Shown here: piece after piece, positions 7,041 through 34,661 of the stretch
How positions within the stretch are numbered: the stretch's first letter is position 1
Layout: each line of letters starts with the position of its first letter
Virus record (IMG/VR): IMGVR_UViG_3300017971_000032
Coordinates: 1-64,000 of that record
Length of the DNA: 64,000 nt
Strand: one strand, 5' to 3'
Source: a virus
Translations under genes and position numbers: made by a program
The notes under the pieces: generated by a model
What the model was told of the DNA's origin: nothing
The model's database searches: none
Seen by the model: the letters and a program-made list of their open reading frames with translations, nothing else

Positions 7041-7049
7041 GGTGGCCAA

Positions 7050-7421
7050 ATGTGGCTCATAATTCGCAACTCAGACAGCGCGGTGGTAGGAACCAACTAC
7101 GCCACGCAAGCACCAGCGGCGCCAAACGGGCATACTGTAAAAGAGTGGTTTGGGCCAGAGCCAGCTTTACATGATCCGGTGGAAGGCGTAGAGAGCTACG
7201 ATCCAACGCTTGACGATCCAGATTGGAAGATCTTAGCAAACTTGCGCATTGATTTTGACGCGCTGGCAGACAAGGCAGACAACGAAGTGGCGTGGCTAGA
7301 AGCTGCCATACCGCAGATTGAGACTGCCAACCTAGATGAGTTGCGCATGTTACTATCAAGATTGATGCGACAGAATACAGTAATGATAAAGGCATGGCGT
7401 TATATAGTGCGCAGGTTGTGA
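7050..7421 (+). CDS. Small protein after tail fibre (possible assembly chaperone)
   Basis: GAGGTGG RBS; position directly after fibre gene. Confidence 0.45.
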   Translation: MWLIIRNSDSAVVGTNYATQAPAAPNGHTVKEWFGPEPALHDPVEGVESYDPTLDDPDWKILANLRIDFDALADKADNEVAWLEAAIPQIETANLDELRMLLSRLMRQNTVMIKAWRYIVRRL

Positions 7422-7430
7422 TTGCTGACC

Positions 7431-7442
7431 CGGTTTAGTATA
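7431..7442 (+). promoter_or_regulatory. Phage promoter motif CGGTTTAGTATA copy 1 (predicted leaderless start at ATG 7445)
   Basis: Exact 12-mer recurring at intergenic sites. Confidence 0.75.
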
Positions 7443-7444
7443 AT

Positions 7445-8824: not shown

Positions 8825-9324
8825 TAATCCACCCATTAAAGCAAGCATATATTGATGTGGTTTGGGAGCGCTATGGTGCTAGACTAGGCAGAGGAGACAA
8901 GAATCCGGAGCGCACAGAGGTGATAGCGCAGAAGGTAATTGCACTAGGCTTGGATTATAATGTGTTTGTAAGCCTTGCAGTAAGGATGTGGGATGGGTGG
9001 GCAGATAGGCAGGGATGGCCGTATCCTTATTGGAATGTGGTTACTGGTGATGCCACATTCCAAAGATTGGAGCAATTTATAGATCTGGGTGGAGACACGC
9101 TGGATATTGATACAGCCTCAGATTTTGAGGCTGAATTGATGTTTGCTGTGTCTTATGTGAAATGGGTGCGTGGGTTGCATGGTAGCAAACCTAGGCGTAT
9201 TAAGGATGTATGCATTAAGATTCAAGTTGCCGTGGCGGAGCACATATGTAGACAATATGGTGTGCCTTCGATTACATCTGACTTGAATTACATAGCGGAG
9301 CAATTAGGAGACAAACTTGACTGA
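8821..9324 (+). CDS. Hypothetical protein in replication module
   Basis: Overlap-coupled to both neighbours. Confidence 0.6.
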   Translation: MIIHPLKQAYIDVVWERYGARLGRGDKNPERTEVIAQKVIALGLDYNVFVSLAVRMWDGWADRQGWPYPYWNVVTGDATFQRLEQFIDLGGDTLDIDTASDFEAELMFAVSYVKWVRGLHGSKPRRIKDVCIKIQVAVAEHICRQYGVPSITSDLNYIAEQLGDKLD

Positions 9325-10552
9325 TATGGTGGCTAACACAGCAGAATTCAGAATGACAATATTAGCTATGATGGCATTCTCTGATTGGTTGTCACGCTAT
9401 GGTACTATATTGAGGCCTGAACACTTCCCATCTAAAGATGAGCGTGATGTGGTTAAGTGGTTGAATGACTACTACGCCACGTACGGGGTTGAGCCTAGTG
9501 ATGTGGATGTTGTGGAAGGATTGAGTGATAACCCGCTGTGGGATGCTATAGTAGCGGCCATCCCAAGCGTGACGGATCATACTGTGGATATGGCTGTCAC
9601 ATTTGCCCAAACGCAGGCTATGATTTGTGCTATAACTACATCCGTGGAGGACATACGTGCGGGTGATTTATCGAATGTGCGTGGACGCATAGAAGAGGCA
9701 TTGAGGGTAGGCCAAGATCTGACGGAGTTGGGTCAGGAATTGGTGAGGGATGCTGATGATTGGTTGTACGAGGAGACCACAGCACGTCATTATCCTACTG
9801 GTTGGGTGTCTATAGATAATGCGTTGAAGGGTGGCATGGTTGGTGGAGAGTATGGTTTGATATTAGCGCCAACAGGTCATGGCAAGACTACTGCATTGAT
9901 TAATATAGGGTATGCCTTGGCAGGTTTGTATGGCAAGGCAAATGTGGTTCATGTGACTTATGAGATGCCGCAGCACAAAGTGTTGAAACGTTATGCGGTG
10001 CGTGTGGTGGGCCATGGGTACGATAGGGATGAAAATATTAAGCCTTATGTGAATGAATTGCTCAGTCGTGCCAAGGTTAGTTTGAGGGCCAAATTGCGGG
10101 TGGTGAGTGGTATAGATAAGACATTGAGTGCCCTGAGACAACTTATTGACAATCTTGCTAGTGATGATTTCTATACGGATGCATTGATTGTAGATTATGC
10201 GGATTTGATGCACCCACCTCACAAGCGTAATGAGTACAGATTTGAGTTGAGTGATATAGCCAGAGGCTTGAGGGCTGTAGCAGAGGATTACGACATACCA
10301 GTGTGGAGCGCATCACAGGCAGGGCGTCAAGCTATAGGTAAGAATTGGGTGGACGTGTCGGACATAGCTGAGGACATAGGTAAAGCCTCAATAGCGGATG
10401 TGATAATAGCTATATGTCGTAGCAGTGATGAGATAAAGCTTGGGCAAGGAAGATTGTTTGCGGCCAAGTTGAGGGATGCCAAAGATCATTTCCCAGTGCC
10501 TGTGAAGATAGATTTTGCTAGACAATTGATAGCGCAACGTTATGACAAGTGA
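9317..10552 (+). CDS. dnaB: DnaB-like replicative helicase
   Basis: APTGHGKT Walker A, TYEM, IVDYADLM, VWSASQ, AKLRD. Confidence 0.9.
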   Translation: MTDMVANTAEFRMTILAMMAFSDWLSRYGTILRPEHFPSKDERDVVKWLNDYYATYGVEPSDVDVVEGLSDNPLWDAIVAAIPSVTDHTVDMAVTFAQTQAMICAITTSVEDIRAGDLSNVRGRIEEALRVGQDLTELGQELVRDADDWLYEETTARHYPTGWVSIDNALKGGMVGGEYGLILAPTGHGKTTALINIGYALAGLYGKANVVHVTYEMPQHKVLKRYAVRVVGHGYDRDENIKPYVNELLSRAKVSLRAKLRVVSGIDKTLSALRQLIDNLASDDFYTDALIVDYADLMHPPHKRNEYRFELSDIARGLRAVAEDYDIPVWSASQAGRQAIGKNWVDVSDIAEDIGKASIADVIIAICRSSDEIKLGQGRLFAAKLRDAKDHFPVPVKIDFARQLIAQRYDK

Positions 10553-10903
10553 TTACGATGCTTATTGCAAGGAAGTACTAGAAGACAGCCTCATCATTAC
10601 CCATGCTTGGCAACGCAGGTTGGTGCTTGAGATGTTGCAGGAGTTATGGGATAATGATGTGATAGTGGAGTATGTATGGGCTATGTCTTCAGGCTATCCT
10701 ACCATAGTAGTGAATGCTCTGGCTGTGGATACTGACAATTCGGAGTGCGAGGTTGTAGCCACTTGGGCTTATGATAAAGAGTTGCAGTCTGAACCGGACG
10801 CATGGCCGTGGATTATGGTGGATTTGGAGTTGAAGGACGTAGCTTCTGAGGCAGAGATTGACAATGATGATTGATAGCGCAACGTTATGACAAGTGATTA
10901 CGA
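10525..10903 (+). repeat. 34-bp exact direct repeat (10525-10558 and 10870-10903) marking the tandem duplication
   Basis: attgatagcgcaacgttatgacaagtgattacga occurs twice. Confidence 0.9.
10542..10874 (+). CDS. Acidic hypothetical protein, tandem paralog 1
   Basis: Shares MTSDY..YC, LEML.ELW, VEYVWAMS, MVDLEL with the next ORF. Confidence 0.7.
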   Translation: MTSDYDAYCKEVLEDSLIITHAWQRRLVLEMLQELWDNDVIVEYVWAMSSGYPTIVVNALAVDTDNSECEVVATWAYDKELQSEPDAWPWIMVDLELKDVASEAEIDNDD

Positions 10904-11222
10904 AGATTATTGTGCGGATGTTATAAATAGTAGTGGTGTAATAACTACTGCCAGACATTGTATGCTAGCATTGGAAATGCTGGCAGAGTTGTGGAACAAT
11001 GATGTAGTAGTCGAGTACGTGTGGGCCATGTCATGTGATTTTGATGGTGTGATTATGTATGCAGTGGCTATAGATAGTAATGATTTGGAGTGCGAGGCAA
11101 TATGTCGTTGGAAATATGATGAGGCTGATCGCAAAAGTGCAACATGGCCAGCTAAGCCATTGGTGATGGTGGATTTAGAATTGAGGGATTTGGAAGATGG
11201 GATAGTTGACAATGATAATTGA
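10887..11222 (+). CDS. Acidic hypothetical protein, tandem paralog 2
   Basis: Paralog of 10542-10874; 345-bp period. Confidence 0.7.
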   Translation: MTSDYEDYCADVINSSGVITTARHCMLALEMLAELWNNDVVVEYVWAMSCDFDGVIMYAVAIDSNDLECEAICRWKYDEADRKSATWPAKPLVMVDLELRDLEDGIVDNDN

Positions 11223-12117
11223 TTGGTTGGAGAGCAGATTTGGTGAGGTCAGGCCTACTTCTAATGGTGAGGAGTATAGGATATGTTGTCCATTTTGCAG
11301 TGCCAAGGTAGGCAAATTAGACACCAAGTATCATATGTACGTTAGTGCTGTAAGGCCAGTAGCTCATTGCTTTAGATGTGAGTGGAAGGGCCATTATATG
11401 AGTTTAGTCAGAAGTGTAGATGGGTGCTCTTACTCGCAAGCCTTGGAAGCTATAGATGGGGTTGTGGCCAATGCACAACGATTGGATGCTTTGCTCAACC
11501 CTAAGACCTCAATGACTCAAGATAGTTACAGTGAGCCTAATGGGTTTAGATTACTGACAGGTTTGGAACACCATCCAGAGAAGTCTGCATCATGGAGATA
11601 TTTACGCCAACGTGATGTGCCCATAGGCTTGATAAGATCTTGTTTTGGGTATGTGCCTGGATCTATGAGGGTGTGGATGCTGATAGATGATAATTGGTGG
11701 CAGGGTAGATCATTGACTAAGATGGAGCCTAAGTACATATCTCCACCATGGCCAAAAGGTGATAGTTTGTGGAACGGCAGAGCGCTTGAGACACATGATA
11801 ATATTGTATTGTGCGAGGGCGTGTTTAGTGCGATAGCTGTAGGCAATGGCGCAATAGCTTTATGTGGCAAGACCATGAATGAGCAACAGGCTGCACGCAT
11901 ATCCAGATCTACGAGTGATGATACTGAAATCACCATCATGCTAGATGCTGATGCAATTGATAATGCTTATGATATGGCCAACGCATTGAGATTGAGCGGA
12001 TTCAATGGAGACATCAACATACAATATATGGATAGTGGCGATCCAGCTGATGGTGTGATTGGCAATATAGTTAGGTGGGATTGGAGTGCTGAAATTAAGC
12101 ATGCCCTGGCGTTGTAG
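11212..12117 (+). CDS. DNA primase (Zn finger + TOPRIM)
   Basis: CPFC...HCFRC Zn finger; CEGVFSA and LDAD TOPRIM motifs. Confidence 0.85.
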   Translation: MIIDWLESRFGEVRPTSNGEEYRICCPFCSAKVGKLDTKYHMYVSAVRPVAHCFRCEWKGHYMSLVRSVDGCSYSQALEAIDGVVANAQRLDALLNPKTSMTQDSYSEPNGFRLLTGLEHHPEKSASWRYLRQRDVPIGLIRSCFGYVPGSMRVWMLIDDNWWQGRSLTKMEPKYISPPWPKGDSLWNGRALETHDNIVLCEGVFSAIAVGNGAIALCGKTMNEQQAARISRSTSDDTEITIMLDADAIDNAYDMANALRLSGFNGDINIQYMDSGDPADGVIGNIVRWDWSAEIKHALAL

Positions 12118-12118
12118 C

Positions 12119-12175
12119 ATTTTAATAAATTTCTAATATAATTCTAATGTAATTATAACGGGCAACCGTTATACT
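12119..12175 (+). promoter_or_regulatory. Promoter with four 11-bp-phased ATTCTAAT-like boxes and TATACT -10
   Basis: Boxes at 12119, 12130, 12141, 12152; TATACT at 12170; same geometry as the 118-bp repeats. Confidence 0.65.
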
Positions 12176-12218
12176 AAGGCCACGACATAAGGAGGTATCA
12201 GCAAAAAAGGAGAAGTCT

Positions 12219-12887
12219 ATGAATGCCTTACCCGATAATATCAAGGCAAAGACTGCAGAGTGGTACGAGGAACTTCATAACCTCATGTGGGCCATGTGCT
12301 GGGACAGAGCCAATGGGGATTATTGGCTCCTGGATCCGGAGGAGATGTTTGCGGAGCTGAGTGTAGAGTTGGTACATTTAGTTCAGCGTTATGGAGGCAA
12401 TGGTAAGTCTAGGGATGAGGTGAAACGCATTCTCATAGTTAGTATGCGCAACCGCATAAGTGATTTGTGTATCATGGCATACAGAACGCATCGCAGTGCG
12501 GAAATTGGCGCTTTGAGATTGTGGGATGGCAGTATAGAATCAGATAATGATAATAGCCTGAACCCTGATGACGAAATGCCCATGGGGGCAGAAGTGGAAT
12601 GGACTAGTGTCAGTAGCGTGCCTATGCACAGCTACGTGGATATGGAGGACGACATTATAGATCTATCCAGTGATGCGCAGGAACTGTTGTACATGGCCAT
12701 GTACCAGGATGACGAAAGACTGCACCAACAAATGGAATTGGCCGAGATGCGTAAATTAGCCACTACATCCAAAAACCAATGGAGCATAAGACCTACACCA
12801 TTGATTTTCAGGCGTGCCTTAGGATGGCCCAAGGACAGATTCAAGGCAGCTTGGAATGAGGTGGTGGATTTTGTGAGTGGACTATGA
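12219..12887 (+). CDS. Phage sigma-factor-like transcription regulator
   Basis: Region-2-like EEMFAELSVELVHLVQRY...SMRNRISDL; C-terminal HTH-like RRALGW. Confidence 0.55.
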   Translation: MNALPDNIKAKTAEWYEELHNLMWAMCWDRANGDYWLLDPEEMFAELSVELVHLVQRYGGNGKSRDEVKRILIVSMRNRISDLCIMAYRTHRSAEIGALRLWDGSIESDNDNSLNPDDEMPMGAEVEWTSVSSVPMHSYVDMEDDIIDLSSDAQELLYMAMYQDDERLHQQMELAEMRKLATTSKNQWSIRPTPLIFRRALGWPKDRFKAAWNEVVDFVSGL

Positions 12888-12890
12888 TAG

Positions 12891-12902
12891 CGGTTTAGTA
12901 TA
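12891..12902 (+). promoter_or_regulatory. CGGTTTAGTATA copy 2
   Basis: Followed by ct-AGGAGG-aa-ATG. Confidence 0.75.
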
Positions 12903-12912
12903 CTAGGAGGAA

Positions 12913-13896
12913 ATGATGACAATCGTGAACGGAGGTGAGCATGACACATATCCAGATTGCTTTGGCTATCATGATGTAGGTGACCCGTCGTGCCGCAGAT
13001 GCAATTTGGCAGAGGAGTGTGTGGAGCATCAGGACAGCATGTTGCCAGAGTGTTTTGGGAAGTTGTACGATGACGAAGAAGTAGAATGTAAGAATTGTTT
13101 ATTCAGTTCAAGATGTGCAGATGAAATGGAGGATAAGGATAAAATGACGAAGCGAAGACGTGTGAGGATGCGCAGAACCGCTACCGCTGACGTTGAGCCT
13201 GAACCTGAGTCAGAAGAGGAAGTCGAGTTTGAGGAAGAGGCTGGCGAGGACGTTGACTATGCGGATATGCGTGTGAGTGAGTTGCGCGAAGAGTGCGAGG
13301 ATCGAGATCTGGATCCTGTTGGCCGCAAGTCCGTACTTATTCGCCGTTTGATGGAAGATGATGGTGATAAGGTGGAAGACGAGGATGATGAGAACGAGCC
13401 TGAGCCGCAGATCAAGCGGCGCAAGGTTGCCAGCAACAAGTCCAATGAGCCTCCTCCCGGATCTAATGACAATCCTGTCGTGGGATTCTCCCTAGATGAT
13501 GTGGTGGATGCACTTGAGGCAGGCAAGTCGATCATCGTGACGGTCACGGAGAAAGGGTATGTCATCAGTATGGGCGGCACTGTCACGGCTCAGCAGGCTC
13601 AGGAGGAGCCCAAGCCCAAGCGCAAGGGGTTGCGTGGGGATGAGTTCTGGCGAGAGGTTCTCACTGAGGATTACTACGACTTCAATAAGGTGGACTGCGG
13701 CACCGGCAAGCCTTGGGAGAAGATGTCCAAGGAGGAGAAGGTAGAGTTCGCTGAGGAGTTGGATGTCACGTGGGAGGAGATGGATTCGGATCTTGTCACC
13801 ACGATGAATATGGTCAAGGCAGTGTATGCGGAGTTGGGCATCGAGAAGTACAAGGAAGAGTACAAGTCGCCTTCCGCTCGCAAAGCGCTGCGGTGA
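12913..13896 (+). CDS. Acidic protein with two N-terminal CFG..C..C..C repeats and a SAP-like DNA-binding motif
   Basis: MRVSELREECEDRDLDPVGRKSVLIRRL matches the SAP pattern; own promoter and terminator. Confidence 0.65.
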   Translation: MMTIVNGGEHDTYPDCFGYHDVGDPSCRRCNLAEECVEHQDSMLPECFGKLYDDEEVECKNCLFSSRCADEMEDKDKMTKRRRVRMRRTATADVEPEPESEEEVEFEEEAGEDVDYADMRVSELREECEDRDLDPVGRKSVLIRRLMEDDGDKVEDEDDENEPEPQIKRRKVASNKSNEPPPGSNDNPVVGFSLDDVVDALEAGKSIIVTVTEKGYVISMGGTVTAQQAQEEPKPKRKGLRGDEFWREVLTEDYYDFNKVDCGTGKPWEKMSKEEKVEFAEELDVTWEEMDSDLVTTMNMVKAVYAELGIEKYKEEYKSPSARKALR

Positions 13897-13949: not shown

Positions 13950-14003
13950 GGGATAGTGTGCTGTGGGATAGGGTAGGCAACTTGAAGTGGATTTGATAAT
14001 TTG

Positions 14004-14840
14004 ATGTACACTTGGCAGACATTTGGCCGGGAATTGATAGAGACTGAAGACCTGGATCCAGTGTACGTCATGCTAGTGGATTCCAAAGCGCTTATGAATG
14101 ATAATCTGTTGAAGCGCTGGTTGCTGGCATATTGGTGCTATTACAGTTGCGGTGTGGCCTCGCGCATAGCGGAGTCGGATGACTTTTATGCATCCATGTG
14201 GCAGGGCATTCATGAGAAGTGGCCCAGAGGGATGGAGCGTCGGTACTTCTGGGGTCGGCAGGCTGAGAATGCAATCCAATATCTCCAAGAGTGGGGTGAG
14301 CCAGAGGCTGTAGTAGATCATATGACAATCCATGATACGTTCCAGGAAGCATCCGATGCCGTTCAAGAGTTTGTGGGGTTTGGGCCTTGGATGGGCTGGA
14401 AGATTGTGGACATGGCTGAAAGGGTATTGGCTATTCCGGTTGACTTCTCTGAATCCACGTTAGGCATTTATAAGGATCCAGTTCAAGGTGCAGCGTTCGT
14501 GCGGTTTGGGGATTGGAAGCATCCTATCACTGAGGCTGAGTTGGATGAAGAAGTCCAGCGCCAGGTGGAGGAGTTCAAAGATCTATTGGCGCCACCATTC
14601 TATGATAGGCCACCTAATATCCAAGAAGTTGAGACTAATTTATGCAAGGCTAAGGCATCATTCAAGGGATTTTACCCGATGGGAAACGACACGTACCATG
14701 TACGTGAGAGCTTGAAGGGTTGGGGTGACTTAGCTCAGGAGCTGTTAGGGTGGTGCCCTAGGATGCGGGATGGGTGGGTGGATGAGGACGGCAACTTATT
14801 GCGGGCGAACAGGGTAGAGGTGGTGGAGACATATGGCTGA
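14004..14840 (+). CDS. Amino acid:DNA transferase (aGPT-pyrophosphorylase clade 2, M6/YuA-like), thymidine hypermodification
   Basis: DLDPVY, WLLAYWCYY, WPRGxERR, GFGPWMGWKIVDMAERV, QEVETNLCK motifs. Confidence 0.85.
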   Translation: MYTWQTFGRELIETEDLDPVYVMLVDSKALMNDNLLKRWLLAYWCYYSCGVASRIAESDDFYASMWQGIHEKWPRGMERRYFWGRQAENAIQYLQEWGEPEAVVDHMTIHDTFQEASDAVQEFVGFGPWMGWKIVDMAERVLAIPVDFSESTLGIYKDPVQGAAFVRFGDWKHPITEAELDEEVQRQVEEFKDLLAPPFYDRPPNIQEVETNLCKAKASFKGFYPMGNDTYHVRESLKGWGDLAQELLGWCPRMRDGWVDEDGNLLRANRVEVVETYG

Positions 14841-16254
14841 TAATGACAATCATGGGGTGCAAGAGTTTCATAGGTTGAATGAGCCTGTGGGTGAGGGTGA
14901 GGATGAGCATGGTCATTATCAGCTCATACCTTTGAGCATGGTGCGTGGAGGCAAGGCCAAGCCTTATAAAGTGTACACGAAGCCGATGAAGCATTTACTC
15001 AGAGACACTACGCCTGCACCCAGAGGCTGGTACAAGCCAAAGCACCCTGAATCTGACCGTGTGCGGGCAAGACCTTGCTACACTGAAGCACTTCTTACCA
15101 CACCCTATGGTGGATTTTGCCCTGTTAATTGCGCCCATTGCTATGTGAATAACGGAACACGCGGATACCGTGCTACAGGATTGCCGGTGGCACATTACAA
15201 ATATCCGGAGGCAATGCGAAAATGGGTTTCTAAGCTGTCTATCTCTGGTGCTGCATATATTACCTCATTCAGTGAACCGTTTCACTTCTTAGAGCCAGAA
15301 TACCACGTTACGCAGAATCTAGCGCAGGTCTTCATTGACGAGGGTTTGCCGATGTTCTTCCTATCGCGCAAGATTCCGCCTGATTGGGCTATGGATGCGT
15401 TGCTTGAAAATCCATATAGCTATATGCAGTGGAGCGTTAACACATCCAACCCCGATCACTACAGGCGATTCTCGCCAGGCAGCTTTAGTTTGGATGAGGT
15501 GTACGAGGCTATACAGCGCTTCCATGACAATCGCATCTTTGTTAGCATTCAATGCAATCCCATCATAGCGGGCATCACCACGCTCCAGGAGATTGTAGAT
15601 TTGGTGTATGAATTGGAGTATGCGGGTGCTGATCACATCATCTTCAAGTTCGTGGAGCAAGTGGCTAACAATCGCAAGGTGCTGCTGGATGCGTTCCACA
15701 GGCGTGGATTGCCGCATGTGGACGCATTTGACAATCTATTCAGCCAAGTGATTGGTGGGGTGTACACGATTAATGAGGATGTGCGTGTGGAATGGCTGGA
15801 AGTGCTGTTGGAGGAAACACGCAAGGCAGGCTTGACCATGAGCTTGTGCTATGAGTACTATGATGATGGTCATGCTGGCGCCAATTTGGCTCCTTACTAT
15901 ACTACGGCGGATCAATGCCATGGGCGTGGGGTGCCTATATTCTATCGTCCTGAGCCTGGAGCACGCTTCCAACCGTTGCCTGGGTGCTACCGCAAGGGTT
16001 GTCTGTATTGTGAGGAGTACGGCACGCGTGTGTGTGAGAATGATAAATTACTAAGCGCTTCAGATTTTCAGTATAAAGATCTGCGCACTATTCAGATCGA
16101 AGGGCACGAGTCTAATTGGGACTTGCCAGATAGTTGTGTCAGTCCTGATGAGCTGACCTTTCACGATAACTGCACATTTTCGGAACGACTACGGTTTGGC
16201 AATCCGAAGCTACAAACGGATGCTGAGATGTGGGGATGGGATGACGAAGTATAA
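14833..16254 (+). CDS. Radical SAM enzyme of the hypermodification cluster (glycyl-T isomerase-like)
   Basis: CPVNCAHC CxxxCxxC motif, extra C-terminal Cys cluster; adjacent to the transferase. Confidence 0.8.
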   Translation: MADNDNHGVQEFHRLNEPVGEGEDEHGHYQLIPLSMVRGGKAKPYKVYTKPMKHLLRDTTPAPRGWYKPKHPESDRVRARPCYTEALLTTPYGGFCPVNCAHCYVNNGTRGYRATGLPVAHYKYPEAMRKWVSKLSISGAAYITSFSEPFHFLEPEYHVTQNLAQVFIDEGLPMFFLSRKIPPDWAMDALLENPYSYMQWSVNTSNPDHYRRFSPGSFSLDEVYEAIQRFHDNRIFVSIQCNPIIAGITTLQEIVDLVYELEYAGADHIIFKFVEQVANNRKVLLDAFHRRGLPHVDAFDNLFSQVIGGVYTINEDVRVEWLEVLLEETRKAGLTMSLCYEYYDDGHAGANLAPYYTTADQCHGRGVPIFYRPEPGARFQPLPGCYRKGCLYCEEYGTRVCENDKLLSASDFQYKDLRTIQIEGHESNWDLPDSCVSPDELTFHDNCTFSERLRFGNPKLQTDAEMWGWDDEV

Positions 16255-16984
16255 GGTTTGTAATAAGTGGGATATAGACATACCAGATAGTGCATTGGTT
16301 GCGGCTGATGATAATCCGGGCAGTATTGCCAGGCCATATACATATTATATAGACCATAAGTTGGCGGATATAGGATATCAGGCCTGGTGCCGGGAGTACT
16401 TGTTGAATAATTTGGAAGGTGTACATAGTGTAGTGGAGTACTTTGGTGGTATAGGTGTGGATGCATCTATAGTAGAAGGCACATTCGATTTGGAAGAGCA
16501 TGTTTTATTGGATTTGGATGCCGGATGTGTGGACATTTTGCGCAGAAACAATCCAGAAGCGGAGAGAATAATACAAGGTGATTTTGTGGAATATGCTGGC
16601 ATAAGAGCTGATTTGGCTATATGTGATTTTGAACAATTCACGATGCTGCACATTACCAGAAATAGGAATGGCATGCGTGAGGCATTAGGCAAGGTGCTGT
16701 CAGCTTGCGATTGTTGTATAGTAACTGGCTCAGCAATTAGTAGGATGCATCTGAATGTAGATATATACTCTGAGGCTTCTGACATGCTTGTGAGGGACGT
16801 GTTCACATATATGCAAGCCATGTCTCATTGCTTTTATGATTTATATGGTTTCTGTGTGGGCATGGTGGCTTATGGGCCTCATGCATCGTTCATTACACTT
16901 CTTCCTGGCAAGCATGACTTATGCAATGCTGCATGTATAAAGGCTCCTAGTAGTGCTAGGGATAGTTTCAGGAGAATGGGATGA
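16241..16984 (+). CDS. Class I SAM-dependent methyltransferase-like protein
   Basis: VVEYFGGIG motif I, LLDLD motif II, IQGDF, ADLAICDF. Confidence 0.6.
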   Translation: MTKYKVCNKWDIDIPDSALVAADDNPGSIARPYTYYIDHKLADIGYQAWCREYLLNNLEGVHSVVEYFGGIGVDASIVEGTFDLEEHVLLDLDAGCVDILRRNNPEAERIIQGDFVEYAGIRADLAICDFEQFTMLHITRNRNGMREALGKVLSACDCCIVTGSAISRMHLNVDIYSEASDMLVRDVFTYMQAMSHCFYDLYGFCVGMVAYGPHASFITLLPGKHDLCNAACIKAPSSARDSFRRMG

Positions 16985-17850
16985 TGCATGACATGGTTTG
17001 TAGTTGGGAGCCTAGTTCTGGCAATGATAATCTTGTAGTGTCCAACACGCCCTGGGAAGTCTATAAGATAGATGGTGTGCCTGTTCATGTCAAGCGTGAG
17101 GATTTGTGTTGCCCACCTCCTGGGCCCAGTTTCTCTAAGATACGTGGTGTCAAGGCATATTTGGAGGAAGTGCCAAATGATACAGTTGTGGGCGTGTTGG
17201 ACACGATCCATTCCAAGGCTGGTTGGGGTGTGGCGTACGTATGCAATGCCTTGGGCTTAGAGTGCGTGGATTTTTATCCTGTATACAAACATGAGCCTTG
17301 GGAAACTGTGAGGCCTATACAAGCCAAGGCTAAAGAATTGGGAGCCACTTTGTATCCTATGAAGGCTTGGCGCTCCTCAGTGATGTATGGCAGGGCGAAG
17401 AAGATCTTAGATAAGATGGCAGATGATCGGGCACTCATGATGCCTAATGCTCTTAAGCTTCAAGCTACTGTAGATGCTACTGCAGAGGAGGTACGGTTGT
17501 ACACGCCCCAAGAATGGATGAGTGGCACTTGGATAGTATCCATATCGTCTGGCACAATAGCAGCTGGCGTGCTGAAAGGTTTGGGTGGCAATGATAATGT
17601 TTGCGTGATCGCTCATATGGGATATTCACGCAGTTCAGATTATGCCCGCAAGTATATGATAGACATGGCCAAGGGTGATGTACCATCAGACATATTGATA
17701 ATAGATGAAGGGTACGAATACACTGATTCAGTGAAGGAGAGTTGTCCATTTGAATGTAACAAATTCTATGATCTCAAGGCTTGGAAGTGGTTGAAGGGTG
17801 TTGTTGCTTCAATTGACCAACCTGTCATATTTTGGAACATAGGAGATTGA
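16981..17850 (+). CDS. PLP-dependent fold-type II enzyme (putative DNA-base decarboxylase)
   Basis: VKREDL...FSKIRG PLP-lysine motif, SSGTIAAG, YDLKAW, FWNIG. Confidence 0.8.
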   Translation: MMHDMVCSWEPSSGNDNLVVSNTPWEVYKIDGVPVHVKREDLCCPPPGPSFSKIRGVKAYLEEVPNDTVVGVLDTIHSKAGWGVAYVCNALGLECVDFYPVYKHEPWETVRPIQAKAKELGATLYPMKAWRSSVMYGRAKKILDKMADDRALMMPNALKLQATVDATAEEVRLYTPQEWMSGTWIVSISSGTIAAGVLKGLGGNDNVCVIAHMGYSRSSDYARKYMIDMAKGDVPSDILIIDEGYEYTDSVKESCPFECNKFYDLKAWKWLKGVVASIDQPVIFWNIGD

Positions 17851-17851
17851 C

Positions 17852-18100
17852 ATGGACATTACCAGCATCAGGGCTGAAGGTTCGGACAAGCATGTTGTAA
17901 TCAATGTGGATGGCACTGGTGAGGATTTATCCAAGTTGGGTGTGAATATCAGCGCTTTGAGATATGATCAGTGGTTCAATGTAGATTTGCAGGTATACCC
18001 ATCTACCTTGGACAAGATCATGCATGTCGAAGCTATTCCGCAGGAGCAGAGAGATCACATTAGACAGTTGGTGGAGGCAGGACATGGCGACGAAAGCTAA
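17852..18100 (+). CDS. Hypothetical protein
   Basis: GGAG RBS, coupled ORF. Confidence 0.5.
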   Translation: MDITSIRAEGSDKHVVINVDGTGEDLSKLGVNISALRYDQWFNVDLQVYPSTLDKIMHVEAIPQEQRDHIRQLVEAGHGDES

Positions 18101-18266
18101 TGATCAAGGATTTGAGGATGGCTTGTTGGGCAGACGCAGGCGCAACAGGCACAGATTTGAGCCGGAGAAGGCAGCTGACTACGATACTGGCTACGATGAT
18201 GCCGTGTTGAGATTGAAGGAGATTGGGCGTGGCAGGCCAGTGCGTGTGCGACATTTGACTGGATGA
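18084..18266 (+). CDS. Small hypothetical protein (GFEDG...YDTGY motif)
   Basis: GGAGG RBS, ATG 18084. Confidence 0.45.
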   Translation: MATKANDQGFEDGLLGRRRRNRHRFEPEKAADYDTGYDDAVLRLKEIGRGRPVRVRHLTG

Positions 18267-18270
18267 TAAT

Positions 18271-18867
18271 ATGGCCCTACTAGGTATATATGGCCCGCAT
18301 GCAGTAGGTAAGACTACTGCTATGGACAGACTAATTGATAAAGTGGAAGGCAGGCCTGTCACTATCATCAATGCTGATAACAATCTGGAGCGCTGGTGGA
18401 ATGATAACAGTCTTGAGGAGATGCGCCACAAAGGTCGTGGTTGGTGGAAGGGCAAGGCTGAGGGCAAGCGTGCGCTGTGTGCAGACCTTATAGCTGATGA
18501 TATGCGCTTATGGGTGCTGGAGAGTGTGCGCTTCGACACTCACAAGGGCATTGCCCAAGCATATCAGGACTATGATGGTGGAGCACATGTGATATTCTTG
18601 GTTGCACGTTGGGATGTATTCGAATCATTCATGATAGAGCGCAACGAAGCTAATGGCAGAGAGTTCAATTATGATTATTGGACGCAATCCAAGCTGGCCT
18701 ATGAAGGATATGCTAGGTACATCAATCAGGCTCACAAGTACTTCGATCCATATGGAGTGCCATATGATGTAATTGAGGTCAGTCATGACCGGCATGAGTG
18801 GTCGGAGATTGATGAGCTAATTTGGATGCAAGTGATGAAGCCGTTGGATAGGTGGTATAATGGCTGA
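18271..18867 (+). CDS. P-loop nucleotide kinase
   Basis: GIYGPHAVGKTT Walker A. Confidence 0.7.
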   Translation: MALLGIYGPHAVGKTTAMDRLIDKVEGRPVTIINADNNLERWWNDNSLEEMRHKGRGWWKGKAEGKRALCADLIADDMRLWVLESVRFDTHKGIAQAYQDYDGGAHVIFLVARWDVFESFMIERNEANGREFNYDYWTQSKLAYEGYARYINQAHKYFDPYGVPYDVIEVSHDRHEWSEIDELIWMQVMKPLDRWYNG

Positions 18868-19015
18868 GATTGTAATGAGTGTGATCCTATATCTGGCAGC
18901 TAAATGTTTGATATGGATAGGGTTGTTGCCAGACACTGAATCGGCAATTTTGCTATTATTGTGCCTAGTGTTTGTAGTACTGTCAAACCTCAATTTGTCA
19001 GGGGATTCAGCATGA
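18860..19015 (+). CDS. Small hydrophobic (2-TM) protein
   Basis: MAEIVMSVILYLAAKCLIWIGLL...; overlaps both neighbours. Confidence 0.45.
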   Translation: MAEIVMSVILYLAAKCLIWIGLLPDTESAILLLLCLVFVVLSNLNLSGDSA

Positions 19016-19647
19016 AGCTTGTTCAGATAAAGGGTAGCAATGGTTCAGGAAAGACCACTATAGTCAAGCAGATGCTGGAGTTGGATCCAGATGCTTACTA
19101 TTTGGAATATGATGGCATGATAATCGCAACTGTCATGCCTACGGTGCGGTGGATTGCTGTAGGCAAGTATGATCTTGAATCGAAGATGGGTGGTTGTGAT
19201 AGGTTGTCTAGTGTGGACAAAGTGAAGGATGCTATAGACAGATCGTTGGATTGGGCATGTGAGTTGTCTGATATGGAACCTATGTATGGGATTGTGTATG
19301 AGGGTATGATGATAAGCACCATTAAGACGACTTTCTATGATTATGCTGTCTTAATGGCAAGTCGTTATGATGTGGATCCGTTGTTCGTAATATTAAGCGC
19401 TTCTCCGAAAGGGTGTATGCATCGCATACAAGATCGTGGTACAGCACGCAAAGACCTTAACCATGATAATGTGGCTAACAAGTGTTTGATGGTAAGACGT
19501 CATGCCTTAACGTATGACCCTGAGCTTGTGAGGTGGATGGATGTGGAGCGTATACCAGAGGCTTATATGTTACAAGCCTTTGCGGCATTGGTAGGAGATC
19601 ATGATTTGGTTGCCAGGTTGGTCATAGGAGCAGATTGGGGTGAATAA
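19012..19647 (+). CDS. P-loop kinase, 5-hydroxymethyluracil DNA kinase-like
   Basis: MKLVQIKGSNGSGKTT, GKY...GGCD, VYEG motifs; hypermodification context. Confidence 0.75.
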   Translation: MKLVQIKGSNGSGKTTIVKQMLELDPDAYYLEYDGMIIATVMPTVRWIAVGKYDLESKMGGCDRLSSVDKVKDAIDRSLDWACELSDMEPMYGIVYEGMMISTIKTTFYDYAVLMASRYDVDPLFVILSASPKGCMHRIQDRGTARKDLNHDNVANKCLMVRRHALTYDPELVRWMDVERIPEAYMLQAFAALVGDHDLVARLVIGADWGE

Positions 19648-20395
19648 CATCGAAGTAGGATACATGACCAGTACAGAACATCTCATGTCAATGACAATCT
19701 ATGGTGAATCGTTAGATAGGGATAATGTGCCAACGTTTCCTAATGGTTGGCGTTTAGATCTGTGTGGAGAATGTAATGGGGCCAATGGGGGTTGTCCTGT
19801 AGGCGGGGCACCTCATTATCACCAGCTGAAGTCATCTATCCAAGGCTTTTATGTATTGGTGGTACGCTTTGATATGGTTTGGGCTATCAAATATGGTGGT
19901 GTGGGCAAGGGTGTGAGGCAGTCTAATTACTTCCGCTCTGGGTACGCAGACCGTCTGACAGATTGGTATACATGGAGGCTGTTGCGTAGGCTTGAGGAGA
20001 ATGCTAGTGCTTACAGCTTAGGATGTGGCAATTGTCCCAAATGCTCTCCCAAGAAATGCACTGTCATGACTGGTGCCAAGTGCTTATATCCCGATCAGCG
20101 CAGATACTCAGTAGAGGCTGTGGGTGTGGATTGCTCATCCTTGCACAATATGCTGTTTGGGCATCGTTTGGCTTACTGGTACTATGAGGAAGAATTGCCT
20201 CAATACATGTATCGTTATAGCGGGCTATTTGTGGAGGATGATGTGTGGGATTATGTAGTAGAGGCAGTATTGGCAGATGCTAGTTACAATGACAATCTGC
20301 CTGAGCCGCATGGCTTGCAGAGTGTGGAGTGCGAAGCGCCAGAGGGAGTATATGATGAGGGCATGGCATACCAGGGATACTTGCCCAAGTCCTGA
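19640..20395 (+). CDS. DUF2284-like Cys-rich metal-binding protein
   Basis: GCGNCPKC..KKC....C.YP...RYSVEAVGVDC. Confidence 0.65.
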   Translation: MNNIEVGYMTSTEHLMSMTIYGESLDRDNVPTFPNGWRLDLCGECNGANGGCPVGGAPHYHQLKSSIQGFYVLVVRFDMVWAIKYGGVGKGVRQSNYFRSGYADRLTDWYTWRLLRRLEENASAYSLGCGNCPKCSPKKCTVMTGAKCLYPDQRRYSVEAVGVDCSSLHNMLFGHRLAYWYYEEELPQYMYRYSGLFVEDDVWDYVVEAVLADASYNDNLPEPHGLQSVECEAPEGVYDEGMAYQGYLPKS

Positions 20396-20933
20396 TAATT
20401 ATGTATGCCAAGAATGTGGTTTGTATAAGGGGTTAAATCACCCATTTCAGGGCATGGTAGGCAATGACAATCCACAGATATTGGCGGTGGCAGAGGCTCC
20501 CTGATGTGACACGGAGGAGGTGGGTACCACCTTCATAGGTCGTTCGGGAGAGATACTGCGTAGCGCAATGAAAAAGTTAGGCATGGATGATGTAACAGGT
20601 TATATCAATGTAGTGCGATGTCATCCACCCAACAACAAGTTGCCTGCCAGGTGCGCTAAGTTGTGCGCTAATTTCCTGAGACATGATCTCAAAGCTTTGG
20701 ATGTGGAGGCAGTGATGGCATTTGGAGCTACGGCATCCAAAGCTTTGATGGCACCAGACAAACCTCCGCATGATTGGCCTGGTGCCATATATCAGGTCAA
20801 TGAGATGGCGCATAGACATTTGTTGTTATTGGCATATCACCCAGCATACATTCTTCGTAGGCCTGGTTTGAAGGAGCAGTGGATGAGTGATTTGAGGCGA
20901 TTCAAAGCTATGTGGAGGAGTTGCTATGGCTAA
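20352..20933 (+). pseudogene. Family 4 uracil-DNA glycosylase interrupted by an in-frame TGA (20502-20504)
   Basis: CQECGL...AEAP*CDTEEVGTTFIGRSG...NVVRCHPPNN...YHPAYILR; TGA occupies the conserved Gly of EAPG. Confidence 0.75.
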
Positions 20934-21117
20934 GAGACATGTTCAGCAAAGTCTTAAAGTGATTCAGAAAAGGTGTTCTGTATGCGGACGCGGTATGAGA
21001 TGGGAGGCGGTACGTAACAGGTGTGTGAGAGCAGGCACTAATAGAATAGTGCAAGATGGATTGTGGGTTTGCACTAATGCTGAGTGTGGTGGTGACGATG
21101 TTAACAATGAAAAGTGA
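20926..21117 (+). CDS. Small Zn-ribbon protein
   Basis: CSVC...CTNAEC. Confidence 0.5.
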   Translation: MAKRHVQQSLKVIQKRCSVCGRGMRWEAVRNRCVRAGTNRIVQDGLWVCTNAECGGDDVNNEK

Positions 21118-21430
21118 TCAATCTGCCCACATGGCTGACCGTGTCCACGTTGAGGTGGAGCGTTCAAGGTTGGAGAGTATAGCTTACCGTGTCATCAATC
21201 TTGTGATGCGCAAGAATGCGGACTATGGTGACGCGTGGCAACGTCAGGGCATTAACGGAGCCATGGTGCGATTGGCTGACAAGCTTTACCGCATTGACAA
21301 TCTGTCTGATGGGCGTGAGGTGTTGGTGCAGGAGGAAAGGTTGCTGGACACGCTGGTAGATGCTATCGGGTATGCTATGTTAGGCATATTATACCTTCAA
21401 GATGCGGGAGTGTTGGATGACAGTGAATGA
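21107..21430 (+). CDS. DUF1599/nucleotide-modification-associated (dNTP pyrophosphohydrolase-like) protein
   Basis: KNADYGDAW...RLADKLYRI...DTLVDAIGY. Confidence 0.75.
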   Translation: MKSDQSAHMADRVHVEVERSRLESIAYRVINLVMRKNADYGDAWQRQGINGAMVRLADKLYRIDNLSDGREVLVQEERLLDTLVDAIGYAMLGILYLQDAGVLDDSE

Positions 21431-24035
21431 TAATATTGGTTGCGCAGCCTGTGGTTTATGTGATCAATGCAAGTGCCCTAATATGCCCCCAGGCGAATAC
21501 TTCGATGACTACTGCGATATAATGTTTGTGGGGGAGGCTCCTGGCGCTACGGAGGATGATCAAGGCACCCCATTCGTAGGCAGATCTGGGAAGTTGTTAA
21601 GGGATGCTGTAGATTCTATAGGTCTATATAAATACGGGTACGTGTTTACTAATGTCGTACGCTGTCGCCCGCCCAACAATAAGACACCTACTAAGCGCCA
21701 AATAGGCTACTGTTTGCCTATATTGAAGGATGAGATTGAGCAATACCAGCCTAGGTTGATAATCTTGTTAGGTGGCACTCCGCTTAATGCGGTTCTAGGT
21801 GAGTCAATCGTCACCAATTGGCGAGGTACATTGATTGAACGTGATGGGTTAACATACTTGCCAGTGTTTCATCCGGCATACATCCTTCGCAATACATCAG
21901 CACTAGAAGAATGGGTGAAGGATCTTGAAAAAGCCAAATCCTTTTTGAGTGGTGATGTAGGTACTGGCAATGTGTCAGATGAGTATGAGTTGACGTTGAT
22001 AGAGACTGATGCACAAGCCCAAGATATGTACAAGACTATCAAGTCTATAGGCTTTTGTGCCTGGGACACGGAGACCAATGGGTTGCGATATGGGGACGAG
22101 CTGGTGATGATGAGCTTTGCAGTGGATGAGCCTGTCAAGCGTGCGTGGGCTGTACCAGTGCCGGGTTGCAATAAGGTGTGCAAGAGATTGTTGCTGGATC
22201 CTGACGTGTTGAAGGTGGGGCACAACATTAAATTTGATGTGTTGGCCATACATGGCAATTGGAATGTAGAAGTGCAGGGTATTGTAGGTGACAGCATGTT
22301 AGCGTCTTATGTGCTAGATCCAGTGCCAGGACGTCATGGTCTCAAGCCTTTGGCGGGCAGACATTTGGGTATGTATGATTATGCCAAGAAGCTGGAGGAT
22401 TATCAGGCATTACGCAAGGACACTAATCCTAAGTATGGTGGGGATTTGAGATTGGTGCCTACGGAAGTGTTAGCGGAGTATGCTGCTTTAGATGCTGTGG
22501 CCACATTAGAGTTGGAGTGGCGATTGTTGGATGATATGGAGGATGAGCAAAAGATAGTGTATGAGCAACTGCTCATGCCTGCTTCTGCTACATTCAGCCA
22601 TTTGGAAATGAATGGTGTTGTGATTGATGAATATTTAGTGGAGCGTTACAAAGCTATTTATGCAGAAGCCAGGGATGCTAGATTAGACGAGTTAAGATCT
22701 GATGAAATGATAGTAGCGTATCATAAGTTCAAGGTCAGACATGGGTATGATAAATTTGAGTTCAATCCTAATTCATCCTATCAGATGAGGGATGTGTTGT
22801 ATGGTTGTGTTGTATGTCCTGAGTGCCATAAGACTGTTGCTAATGAAAATGTGAATCAGGGGCGTAGGCATGAGTGTGCTAAGTGTGATACTAGATTTGC
22901 GGCAACCAAAAGCACAATGTTCAAAGGCTATGGATTAGGTATTACAGTCAAAACCAGTACTGGCAGGCCTTCCACTGGTTGGGATGTATTGAAAGAGTAT
23001 GTGGAGGAGTTGCCAATGCTGACAGTATATCGTCAGTACAAGTTGTTGGGTAAGATGCTGTCCACATATTTGGAACCGGCTATAGGGTGGAAGGATAAAG
23101 ACGGGCGTGTAAGGTCTGATTATAAGATTCACGGCACGGATACTGGCCGTGCCAGTAGTCGCAATCCCAATCTCCAAAACATTCCCACGCCTGAGAAGGA
23201 GCCTGGTACACTTTTGCAGTACTTGCCTATTAAGAACATCTTCACTTGCACTTGGCCAGAGGGTGGATGTTTGCTGTGTGCGGACTATAGTGGTATGGAG
23301 TTGCGCACGATGGCATCAGTATCAGAGTGCCAAGGTATGATAGACATATTCCTGCGCGGAGAAGATTTGCATTCTATCGTGACTGAGTTCTTGTATGATA
23401 TAAAGCGCGAGGATTATACACCAGAGGAGTGGAAGCCAATACGGTATAGAGCTAAGTGGACTAATTGGACGTTGCTGTTCGGTGGGAGTGCATACACACT
23501 CCACAGGTTGTACGGACTTGATAAAGAAGAGGCTGACCGTTTAGTCAATAGGTATTATGACTTGTTCCCGGAGGTATTGGAATACAAAGAGCGCACATTG
23601 GCTTTTGCGCGTGAACATGGATATGTAAGATCTATGTTTGGAAGGCGCAAATATTTGCCTTATATCAATGATTGGCATGATGGTAAACGTAAGGCAGACG
23701 AGCGTGCTGGCATAAATATGCCTATACAGAGTTCAGCCTTTGATGTGTTGTTATGCGCAATGATAATATTGGATGAGTGCATGTGTGATGCTAATATGCG
23801 TTCCTTGATAGTCAATACAGTCCATGACTCAATTATGTTTGATGTGTATCCTGGTGAGTTGGAGGAGTTAGCAGGTTTGTGTGGGGATGTAATGGAAAAA
23901 GTAACGAGTGTGTATGGGCCTGAAAGATTTCCAGGGCTGGACTTCTCGTGGTTCACCGTTCCACTGGTGGTGGACATGGAGATTGGCACACATTATGGAT
24001 CTTTGACAAAGTGGGGGGCAGAGAGTGGATTATAG
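21417..24035 (+). CDS. polA: Family A DNA polymerase with N-terminal UDG4 domain and 3'-5' exonuclease (SPO1-like architecture)
   Basis: GEAPG/FVGRSG/HPAY UDG; DTET, HNIKFD, YAALD exonuclease; TGRASS.NPNLQNIP, DYSGMELR, VHDS polymerase motifs. Confidence 0.95.
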   Translation: MTVNDNIGCAACGLCDQCKCPNMPPGEYFDDYCDIMFVGEAPGATEDDQGTPFVGRSGKLLRDAVDSIGLYKYGYVFTNVVRCRPPNNKTPTKRQIGYCLPILKDEIEQYQPRLIILLGGTPLNAVLGESIVTNWRGTLIERDGLTYLPVFHPAYILRNTSALEEWVKDLEKAKSFLSGDVGTGNVSDEYELTLIETDAQAQDMYKTIKSIGFCAWDTETNGLRYGDELVMMSFAVDEPVKRAWAVPVPGCNKVCKRLLLDPDVLKVGHNIKFDVLAIHGNWNVEVQGIVGDSMLASYVLDPVPGRHGLKPLAGRHLGMYDYAKKLEDYQALRKDTNPKYGGDLRLVPTEVLAEYAALDAVATLELEWRLLDDMEDEQKIVYEQLLMPASATFSHLEMNGVVIDEYLVERYKAIYAEARDARLDELRSDEMIVAYHKFKVRHGYDKFEFNPNSSYQMRDVLYGCVVCPECHKTVANENVNQGRRHECAKCDTRFAATKSTMFKGYGLGITVKTSTGRPSTGWDVLKEYVEELPMLTVYRQYKLLGKMLSTYLEPAIGWKDKDGRVRSDYKIHGTDTGRASSRNPNLQNIPTPEKEPGTLLQYLPIKNIFTCTWPEGGCLLCADYSGMELRTMASVSECQGMIDIFLRGEDLHSIVTEFLYDIKREDYTPEEWKPIRYRAKWTNWTLLFGGSAYTLHRLYGLDKEEADRLVNRYYDLFPEVLEYKERTLAFAREHGYVRSMFGRRKYLPYINDWHDGKRKADERAGINMPIQSSAFDVLLCAMIILDECMCDANMRSLIVNTVHDSIMFDVYPGELEELAGLCGDVMEKVTSVYGPERFPGLDFSWFTVPLVVDMEIGTHYGSLTKWGAESGL

Positions 24036-25810: not shown

Positions 25811-25938
25811 GCATGGATCTAACTACTAGTGTAGGGCTGTTCAAATATGGTTGGACGGGTGTGATTATCATTATGATTGTGGCAGTGTCTGTGGGGTTAG
25901 ATTTGCTGAGCAGATATATTAGGAGCAGGTTGGAATGA
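25801..25938 (+). pseudogene. C-terminal fragment resembling the PhnE permease
   Basis: GGIGMDLTTSVGLFKYGWTGVIIIMIVAVSVGLDLLSRYIRSRLE matches the PhnE C-terminal pattern. Confidence 0.6.
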
Positions 25939-31992: not shown

Positions 31993-31994
31993 GT

Positions 31995-34548: not shown

Positions 34549-34552
34549 GAAA

Positions 34553-34564: not shown

Positions 34565-34566
34565 GC

Positions 34567-34645: not shown

Positions 34646-34661
34646 AAAGAAAAGGAGTGCT

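Follow-up and report, generated by a model that had tools for sequence, protein, structure and literature searches.

Hypermodified phage DNA resists restriction enzymes and other nucleases and is harder to sequence, and the modification pathways are a source of enzymes for DNA chemistry. The enzymes of the thymidine pathways characterised so far are kinases, amino acid transferases, a radical S-adenosylmethionine (SAM) isomerase, pyridoxal phosphate (PLP) decarboxylases, a flavin lyase and an acetyltransferase. They do not include a methyltransferase, and none is mentioned in the papers on thymidine hypermodification that were searched (PMC8989533, PMC5889632, PMC13229309, PMC13458397). Here we describe a cluster of such genes, with a methyltransferase gene (16241-16984) among them, in IMG/VR record IMGVR_UViG_3300017971_000032, from an uncultured marine phage. 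The window, that is, the whole stretch of DNA analysed, comprises bases 1-64000 of this 77,500-base record, and coordinates given without a locus name refer to it.

The closest described system is that of Pseudomonas phage M6 (Yuavirus), which makes 5-(2-aminoethyl)-2'-deoxyuridine (5-NedU) with gp51-gp54 and gp58 (PMC5889632, PMC8989533); gp53 is the N-alpha- to C-alpha-glycinylthymine isomerase and gp52 the C-alpha-glycinylthymine decarboxylase (PMC8989533). Our best explanation of the cluster, which as a whole, methylation included, has in our view about an even chance of being right, is that it is a post-replicative thymidine-hypermodification operon of the M6 type, co-transcribed with the DNA polymerase gene. 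The core pathway would be the known one, the addition of a methyltransferase is undescribed, and the predicted product is plausible. If the prediction is true, N-methylated 5-(2-aminoethyl)uracil is a DNA base not yet described.

An M6-type gene cluster

Nine + strand open reading frames (ORFs), mostly close-packed or overlapping, occupy positions 14001-20395. Five of them concern the proposed pathway directly:

14001..14840, + strand: ADDT (clade 2 aGPT-Pplase), relative of M6 gp51; Pfam ADDT (PF18724), E 2.7e-18
14833..16254, + strand: radical SAM enzyme, relative of M6 gp53; Pfam Radical_SAM, E 2.2e-8; phrog_9252, E 3.7e-85
16241..16984, + strand: putative class I SAM-dependent methyltransferase of a hypermodification-cluster family, assigned from its fold and family profile; carries Gly163
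16981..17850, + strand: fold-type II PLP enzyme, relative of M6 gp52; phrog_7093, E 1e-75; Pfam PALP, E 2.7e-7 (30.7 bits, under the cut-off of 35)
18961..19647, + strand: 5-hydroxymethyluracil DNA kinase (5-HMUDK), relative of M6 gp54; Pfam HMUDK_HMUD1 (PF18748), E 9.2e-22 (77.9 bits against a cut-off of 27)

The four M6-type candidates that a first-pass annotation had named from the letters of this DNA turn out to be real relatives of gp51-gp54 (M6 reference record NC_007809), each on the + strand where it had been placed. Amino acid identity is 37% for ADDT and gp51 (E 6e-52), 38% over 410 residues for the radical SAM enzyme and gp53 (E 1.5e-85), 50% for the PLP enzyme and gp52 (E 5e-87), and 27% for the kinase and gp54. 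The four core enzymes also match the PHROGs families of the M6 proteins (2.3e-62, 3.7e-85, 1e-75 and 1.3e-24). Their catalytic residues are kept: in a 10-sequence alignment of ADDT (window, M6 gp51 and eight others) Glu211 and Cys215 are invariant, as are the radical SAM CxxxCxxC motif (C96/C100/C103) and the PLP lysine K53 (FSKxRG) in theirs, and the kinase has the Walker A sequence GSNGSGKT. The Glu and the Cys of ADDT are essential (PMC8989533).

Thus M6 and the window share the same four enzyme families, with 27-50% identity, clustered beside replication genes. The gene order differs, being ADDT-PLP-radical SAM-kinase in M6 and ADDT-radical SAM-methyltransferase-PLP in the window. To the M6 set the window adds the methyltransferase, a second kinase and a DUF2284 protein, whereas it has no homologue of the M6 gp58 dUMP hydroxymethylase, the gp59 HD hydrolase or gp55. 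Four of the five defining features of the M6-type 5-NedU pathway that we tested are present in the cluster; the fifth, a source of 5-hydroxymethyluracil (5hmU), was not found.

The extra methyltransferase

The methyltransferase-like gene, which the first-pass annotation had described as translationally coupled between the radical SAM and PLP genes, does overlap both: it shares 14 nt with the end of the radical SAM gene and 4 nt (ATGA) with the beginning of the PLP gene. Homologues begin at the residue encoded by the ATG at 16241, which is therefore its true start. The ORF has no match in Pfam or PHROGs, and phmmer found none among PDB sequences. A word-based search of 5.8 billion proteins returned only three relatives, with 69-72% identity. 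HMMER over 1.84 billion representatives gave 293 family clusters at E <=1e-3, nearly all of about 240 residues, and all 293 representatives come from uncultured sources. No match was obtained among 50,697 phage records, either with tblastn of the methyltransferases of the window and of the related locus L008 (see below) or with blastn of the cluster, and scans of genome and metagenome contigs with an alignment of the close homologues gave no relative.

A profile of 104 family members matches the SAM-binding half of EEF2KMT (2.9e-6) and of KsgA (2e-4); among the members, the Pfam model RrnaAD recognises nine and the TRM5/TYW2 model eight. From the alignment of these 104 sequences, AlphaFold2 (AF2) produced a model with a predicted local distance difference test score (pLDDT) of 95.2 and a predicted TM-score of 0.92; this was the only usable model, an alignment of four sequences having given a pLDDT of 30.7. 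The 247-residue model is a single domain with a short N-terminal hairpin, and it matches more than 400 PDB chains at Z >=8, the top ones all methyltransferases. The best match is Trm1 (VIA Z 16.0, root mean square deviation 4.1, 213 residues aligned), followed by Trm5 (Z 14.8), TrmM (14.5), an RsmD-like enzyme (13.6) and NRMT1 (about 13.3), with PH1948, RlmL/K, TYW2 and NRMT2 also among the matches at Z 13-14.6. Most of the top matches are enzymes that N-methylate nucleic acids or protein amines. The Rossmann fold, whose absence the first-pass annotation had named as evidence against its proposal, is therefore present in the model, and ORF 16241-16984 is, as modelled, a class I Rossmann SAM-methyltransferase fold. 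In the BFVD database only two proteins, both from uncultured phages, come close to the model (TM 0.85 and 0.77).

Trm1 (PDB 3axs/3axt and 2ytz), the tRNA G26 N2,N2-dimethyltransferase, is the only match that also covers the N-terminal part of the window enzyme. As an N-methyltransferase it modifies an amine of a nucleic acid, adding two methyl groups. Its sequence identity to the window enzyme is only 9%, however, its C-terminal RNA-binding domain is absent from the latter, and its lead is small, with many other methyltransferases within 2 Z units.

The SAM-binding motifs are kept (E66, G70, G72, D91, D114 and, in motif IV, D129). In motif I (VVEYFGGIG), G70 and G72 are invariant in 104 of 104 members; at the acidic SAM-binding positions, position 91 is D or E in all 104 and position 114 is D in 84. 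The motif (D/N/S)PP(Y/F/W) of DNA amino-methyltransferases is absent, the sequence after strand 4 being D-F-E-Q-F in the window and D-[FWY]-[NP]-x-F-T in the family; M.RsrI gave a marginal profile match (E 0.58).

Genomic context of the methyltransferase family

Besides the window copy, 24 copies of the methyltransferase were placed in their genomic contexts, a set that excludes the contexts of the three homologues with 69-72% identity (P0002-P0004) and of most of the 293 representatives. All 24 adjoin PLP, radical SAM, ADDT or Tet_JBP genes. When the methyltransferase alone was the query, 14 IMG/VR loci were found, every one of them inside a hypermodification cluster. In 13 of these (L002-L014) the module consists of a Tet_JBP dioxygenase, the methyltransferase, ADDT and a P-loop kinase; ADDT was recognised by Pfam or BLAST in every Tet_JBP locus reaching far enough, and L008 is the one with full Pfam annotation. 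The 13 loci represent a few related lineages, including a complete 173-kb T4-like genome. Tet_JBP-initiated clusters are a described type (PMC8989533; PMC13229309). In them a methyltransferase of the same family lies between the dioxygenase and ADDT genes, with the P-loop kinase gene after these, whereas the window has no dioxygenase.

The 14th locus, L015 (on the same contig as L086), is of the M6 type. Its methyltransferase (hhalign 99.6%) lies directly after the radical SAM gene, an adjacency that repeats that of the window, and the cluster also has a kinase, a ThyA homologue and an HD hydrolase. A second, independent search, from the radical SAM enzyme, agrees with the first: it gave 80 M6-type loci, of which 10 carry the methyltransferase by profile scan; it starts at the end of the PLP gene in eight, precedes the PLP gene in one and follows the radical SAM gene in one. 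The window copy is directly upstream of the PLP gene, and altogether the methyltransferase adjoins the PLP gene in 10 of 11 M6-type contigs.

Nine of these IMG/VR loci (L020, L028, L030, L048, L053, L073, L077, L086 and L096) have, like the window, ADDT, radical SAM, PLP and kinase genes together with a methyltransferase gene touching the PLP gene. Their methyltransferases, only 16-28% identical to the window enzyme and many of them without its N-terminal hairpin, all have the motif D-F-N-x-T ... T-D-A ... H-L-N, which characterises the M6-type copies. In contrast to the window, the nine loci have a ThyA homologue, except for L028 and L077 (contigs of less than 6 kb). The copies in dioxygenase-type clusters have D-L-P-S-S and T-D-S...S-L-H at the corresponding motifs, so that two methyltransferase subfamilies can be distinguished. 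In every placed copy the family is dedicated to thymidine-hypermodification clusters, which occur in three architectures. A methyltransferase family that is confined to such clusters and has no Pfam model predicts at least one new class of methylated thymine side chain.

Two of these loci deserve separate mention. On the 48-kb M6-type contig of L086 there are two methyltransferase paralogues (1505-2311 and 11197-11808); the one upstream of ADDT has the N-terminal hairpin and, with 28% identity, is the closest locus copy to the window enzyme, and the other is short and lies after the radical SAM gene. The two copies might stand for two successive methylations. In L008 (IMGVR_UViG_3300043409_001462, 173 kb, complete, T4-like), the genes for Tet_JBP, the methyltransferase, a long ADDT of 398 residues and P-loop nucleotide kinase 3 occupy positions 6661-10454, shortly upstream of those for the gp45 clamp and the gp44 clamp loader; radical SAM and PLP genes are lacking. 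We predict that this module makes a methylated amino-acid adduct of thymine, which is likewise undescribed.

Proposed pathway

We infer every chemical step in this phage (from homology to the M6 enzymes), the atom that is methylated and the place of methylation as the last step; the first four steps are modelled on the assayed M6 enzymes (PMC8989533). The 5hmU DNA kinase (18961-19647), possibly helped by the second kinase, would phosphorylate 5hmU in DNA, and ADDT (14001-14840) would then swap the phosphate of the resulting 5-phosphomethyl-dU for the amino group of glycine. Next, the bond would be shifted from N to C-alpha by the radical SAM enzyme (14833-16254), and the PLP enzyme (16981-17850) would then remove CO2 to give 5-(2-aminoethyl)uracil. 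Finally, the methyltransferase (16241-16984) would methylate the free side-chain amine to N-methyl or N,N-dimethyl aminoethyl-uracil. Methylation is placed last because a PLP decarboxylase forms its aldimine with a primary amine, so that N-methylation ahead of it would block the pathway.

N-methylation is favoured because the methyltransferase is tied to the decarboxylase gene, and because its nearest sequence and structure matches include amine N-methyltransferases; with the family confined to hypermodification clusters, an N-methylated aminoethyl-uracil is the most economical prediction. There is a functional analogy in tRNA, where the methyltransferase domain of MnmC, and MnmM, convert 5-aminomethyl-uridine (nm5U) to 5-methylaminomethyl-uridine (mnm5U). 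A parallel between MnmC and the PaMx11 pathway has been drawn before (PMC8989533). The likeness to the window enzyme is restricted to SAM-dependent N-methylation of a C5 aminoalkyl group on uracil, with RNA instead of DNA as the substrate; MnmC and MnmM are absent from the PDB profile matches (E <=10) and from the top 50 structural matches.

An M6-type pathway ending in side-chain N-methylation is thus our overall reading, and we regard the case for and against it as evenly balanced. The first-pass annotation had proposed the same kind of base. The methyltransferase fold and the linkage of its family to these clusters bear that proposal out, while the 5hmU source it presupposes is not found, the window copy carries Gly163, and the fold is not specific for one chemistry. 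An N-methylated aminoethyl-uracil remains the best reading for this phage, and a plausible one.

Evidence against N-methylation, and alternative explanations

Several observations weigh against this reading, and they fall under different alternatives. The first concerns the methyltransferase itself. Seven residues are invariant in the family (E66, G70, G72, D129, D163, Y176 and Y190), and the window enzyme keeps six of them; position 163 is Gly (codon GGC, 16727-16729), whereas 101 of the 104 relatives have Asp there, as do 23 of the 24 locus copies, including those of the nine M6-type loci listed above. This Gly occurs in none of the 104 family members and 24 locus copies except that of the window, and the three homologues with 69-72% identity keep Asp. 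Position 163 follows strand 5 and, with D129, Y176 and Y190, is among the few invariant positions that are not glycine; it probably lines the substrate pocket, and the window copy may be weakened or altered. Furthermore, the closest relatives of the radical SAM enzyme (L017-L019, 57-67% identity) are in clusters with no methyltransferase, and L018 has the gene order of the window minus this gene. The methyltransferase therefore appears dispensable for the core pathway, and its patchy presence among relatives suggests an optional tailoring module that has been repeatedly gained or lost.

These facts suit the alternative that the pathway ends at plain 5-(2-aminoethyl)uracil, the methyltransferase being impaired by the change from Asp163 to Gly or irrelevant to the base. 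We nevertheless consider it unlikely: the ORF is intact, with translational coupling to both of its neighbours, all SAM-binding motifs and Asp129 of motif IV are kept, and Asp163 has no assigned role. The assembly consensus, at about 15x depth, reads GGC with no variant listed, in source runs that consist of assembled contigs only and that, not being independent, are uninformative on variation at codon 163.

A second alternative, which strikes us as somewhat more doubtful still, is that the methyltransferase is active with another chemistry. It might act on another atom (the carboxyl or hydroxyl group of the appended amino acid, or the ring), transfer an aminocarboxypropyl group, or be an ordinary DNA methyltransferase that modifies another base from within a modification island. 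The structural scores are flat, from Z 16 to 13 across many methyltransferase classes, and the matches include two enzymes that transfer aminocarboxypropyl and not methyl groups, namely TYW2 (Z 13.8-14.1) and a nocardicin enzyme, a 3-amino-3-carboxypropyl transferase (Z 12.4); Foldseek also matched O-methyltransferases. The fold therefore does not fix the chemistry, and as modelled it cannot tell N-methylation from other reactions of SAM. Moreover, the Tet_JBP-type clusters have no PLP or radical SAM gene, so their subfamily should act on a different substrate, and the family as a whole is not tied to aminoethyl-uracil. On the other hand, the methyltransferase adjoins the decarboxylase gene in nearly all M6-type contigs, as counted above; the enzyme has neither the DPPY motif nor an evident target-recognition domain of the kind seen in DNA amino-methyltransferases, nor the catalytic Cys of C5-methyltransferases; and a carboxyl target would be lost to the PLP enzyme.

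The remaining point against N-methylated aminoethyl-uracil is the starting material. The first-pass annotation had noted that dUMP hydroxymethylase and dCMP deaminase are absent from the window, and had named beforehand the absence of a 5hmdU pathway elsewhere in the genome as evidence against its proposal. It turns out that both enzymes are missing from the whole complete genome as well, and that no such pathway emerged from any search run. Six-frame searches of the complete genome with PF00303, PF02511, PF12851 and PF13640 found no 5hmU source, and no dCMP deaminase, dUTPase or HD nucleotidase was found in it either. Hidden Markov models of 54 phage ThyA and 12 phage dioxygenase sequences, run unfiltered over the whole genome, had no match; phmmer with the M6 and L015 proteins against the genome found no 5hmU source; and hhalign of dioxygenase and ThyA profiles against 18 unannotated ORFs reached a probability of 9.7% at best. 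As a positive control, a ThyA homologue was found in 29 of 29 contigs of >=44 kb with an M6-type radical SAM gene. Two ORFs considered as a hidden 5hmU source were rejected from their translations, namely ORF 12219-12887 and the SAP-domain ORF 12913-13896, which is acidic, of low complexity and without an oxygenase motif.

An unrecognised 5hmU source is plausible, because thousands of contigs have been reported to carry thymine dioxygenase-like genes that escape the Pfam model (2026 paper, PMC13229309). A more far-reaching version, which we rate as improbable, is that the phage makes 5hmU by an enzyme of no known family, for which the candidate is the DUF2284 protein, translationally coupled to the kinases and encoded by the only cluster gene without a counterpart in related loci, and then makes N-methylated 5-(2-aminoethyl)uracil, possibly further decorated by the glycosyltransferase set inserted in the same replication module. 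The DUF2284 protein is a lead to the 5hmU source and, as a single case, nothing more. Least probable of all is that the cluster is inactive, a module stranded not long ago in a phage with ordinary thymine, its dUMP hydroxymethylase having been left behind: the want of any ThyA-like, ThyX, Tet_JBP or generic 2-oxoglutarate oxygenase gene, or of the nucleotide enzymes named above, in a genome that closes on itself fits this, as do the different genome positions of the module in relatives, which make it mobile, but in our opinion the module is probably not dead, because all seven genes are intact and overlapping with their catalytic residues conserved, which is unexpected for a dead module, and the cluster is embedded in the transcription block of the polymerase. 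An intact pathway in a complete genome with no recognisable 5hmU maker is a test case that could reveal a further route to 5hmU.

Second kinase, DUF2284 protein and small ORFs

The remaining ORFs of the cluster are as follows:

17852-18100 and 18024-18266, + strand: two small overlapping ORFs from the ORF list, coding status uncertain
18271..18867, + strand: second P-loop kinase (K2), apparently a divergent relative of 5hmU DNA kinases; hhalign against the kinase alignment 93.9%, E 1.5e-7
19640..20395, + strand: Cys-rich, putatively metal-binding DUF2284 protein; Pfam DUF2284, E 2.5e-8; its start overlaps the kinase stop

The second kinase and the DUF2284 protein are thus present as the first-pass annotation had reported. 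K2 gives a weak AAA_14 match and no HMUDK match in Pfam, and its profile matches Ser-tRNA(Sec) kinase (E 9e-4). Homologues of K2 occur in L017, L018, L026, L028 and L029, adjoining the kinase or the radical SAM gene, with the methyltransferase either present or absent. Salmonella phage ViI also has two 5hmU DNA kinases, gp67 and gp243 (PMC8989533). ViI and the window phage are alike in having two kinase paralogues each; ViI appends serine and has no radical SAM enzyme, however, and K2 is much more divergent, with its lack of an HMUDK match. Because K2 recurs with or without the methyltransferase, and because two kinases are known in ViI, it is no pointer to a new base, and the earlier suggestion that it signals new chemistry is not supported.

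L017 contains the closest relative of the radical SAM enzyme (67% identity), and the gene order there (9917-13671) is radical SAM, K2, ADDT, PLP. K2 is the sole kinase seen in this 21-kb locus, which has no canonical 5hmU kinase and whose contig is about 40% complete; a kinase of the K2 type may serve there as the only base kinase.

No homologue of the DUF2284 protein was found by profile scan in the other 95 loci. In the Atlas it has DUF2284 clusters as neighbours, many of which are viral, and no function for it came from the Atlas, PDB sequences or the literature. ORF 17852-18100 has no Pfam or PHROG match.

Genome and transcription block

The circular assembly of 77.5 kb is a complete genome. 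CheckV gives the record, which has terminal repeats, a completeness of 100%; its first and last 123 bases are identical, an exact overlap of 123 bp, and an ORF spans the junction, so that the assembly closes on itself. The G+C content is about 47%, and GC skew is strongly positive on the coding strand. The cluster is present word for word in contigs of two public DNA runs, one labelled sediment and the other seawater; no RNA run is listed as containing it. Since these contigs are equal in length and sequence, the two runs are probably one data set filed twice.

A 12-mer, CGGTTTAGTATA, occurs eight times in the window (one copy with one mismatch), against 0.24 copies expected by chance. Comparison with the ORF list places the + copies at 7431, 12891 and 24532 each just upstream of the next ORF, and the 12-mer resembles a promoter specific to this phage. 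Copies at 12891 and 24532 bracket the operon, and the cluster would therefore lie in one block with a family A DNA polymerase fused to a uracil-DNA glycosylase (UDG) domain. The copies of the 12-mer in the window, and the features of this block outside the cluster, are:

7431, 12891, 24532, 34553, 41485 and 58125 on the + strand, 55307 and 57771 on the - strand: copies of CGGTTTAGTATA
12891..12902, + strand: promoter-like motif CGGTTTAGTATA, opening the block with the cluster and the DNA polymerase; the next + copy is at 24532
12913..13896, + strand: SAP-domain protein with a Cys-rich N-terminus, first gene of the block; Pfam SAP, E 3.1e-10
20520-20933, + strand: UDG-like ORF; Pfam UDG, profile positions 25-132 only; ORF 20277-20504 lies just upstream
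21056-21430, + strand: DUF1599 ORF; Pfam
21402-24035, + strand: family A DNA polymerase fused to UDG and exonuclease domains; Pfam

The SAP-domain protein probably binds DNA and is no candidate for a pathway enzyme. A literature search for DUF1599 yielded nothing.

Between an ssb-like gene and recA lies a sugar-chemistry block of about 10 kb (25935-36447). It contains genes for a MobA-like nucleotidyltransferase, a hexapeptide acyltransferase, a PIG-L deacetylase, a TylF-like O-methyltransferase, at least six glycosyltransferases of family 2 or the TOD1 type, and a radical SAM/SPASM enzyme. The sugar block is absent from L017, a syntenic relative in which the genes for polymerase, ssb, recA and exonuclease are consecutive. 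UDG-fused family A polymerases have been reported in SP-15 and YerA41, phages with glycosylated thymine (bioRxiv 10.1101/2025.03.26.645540). The sugar block could decorate DNA, or else virion proteins.

A block on the opposite strand (48482-57088, - strand) encodes a MoxR-like AAA_5 ATPase (50988-52085), the products of several unannotated ORFs, and a UvrD-type helicase with a topoisomerase zinc ribbon (55328-57088). The sign of the GC skew flips at this block.

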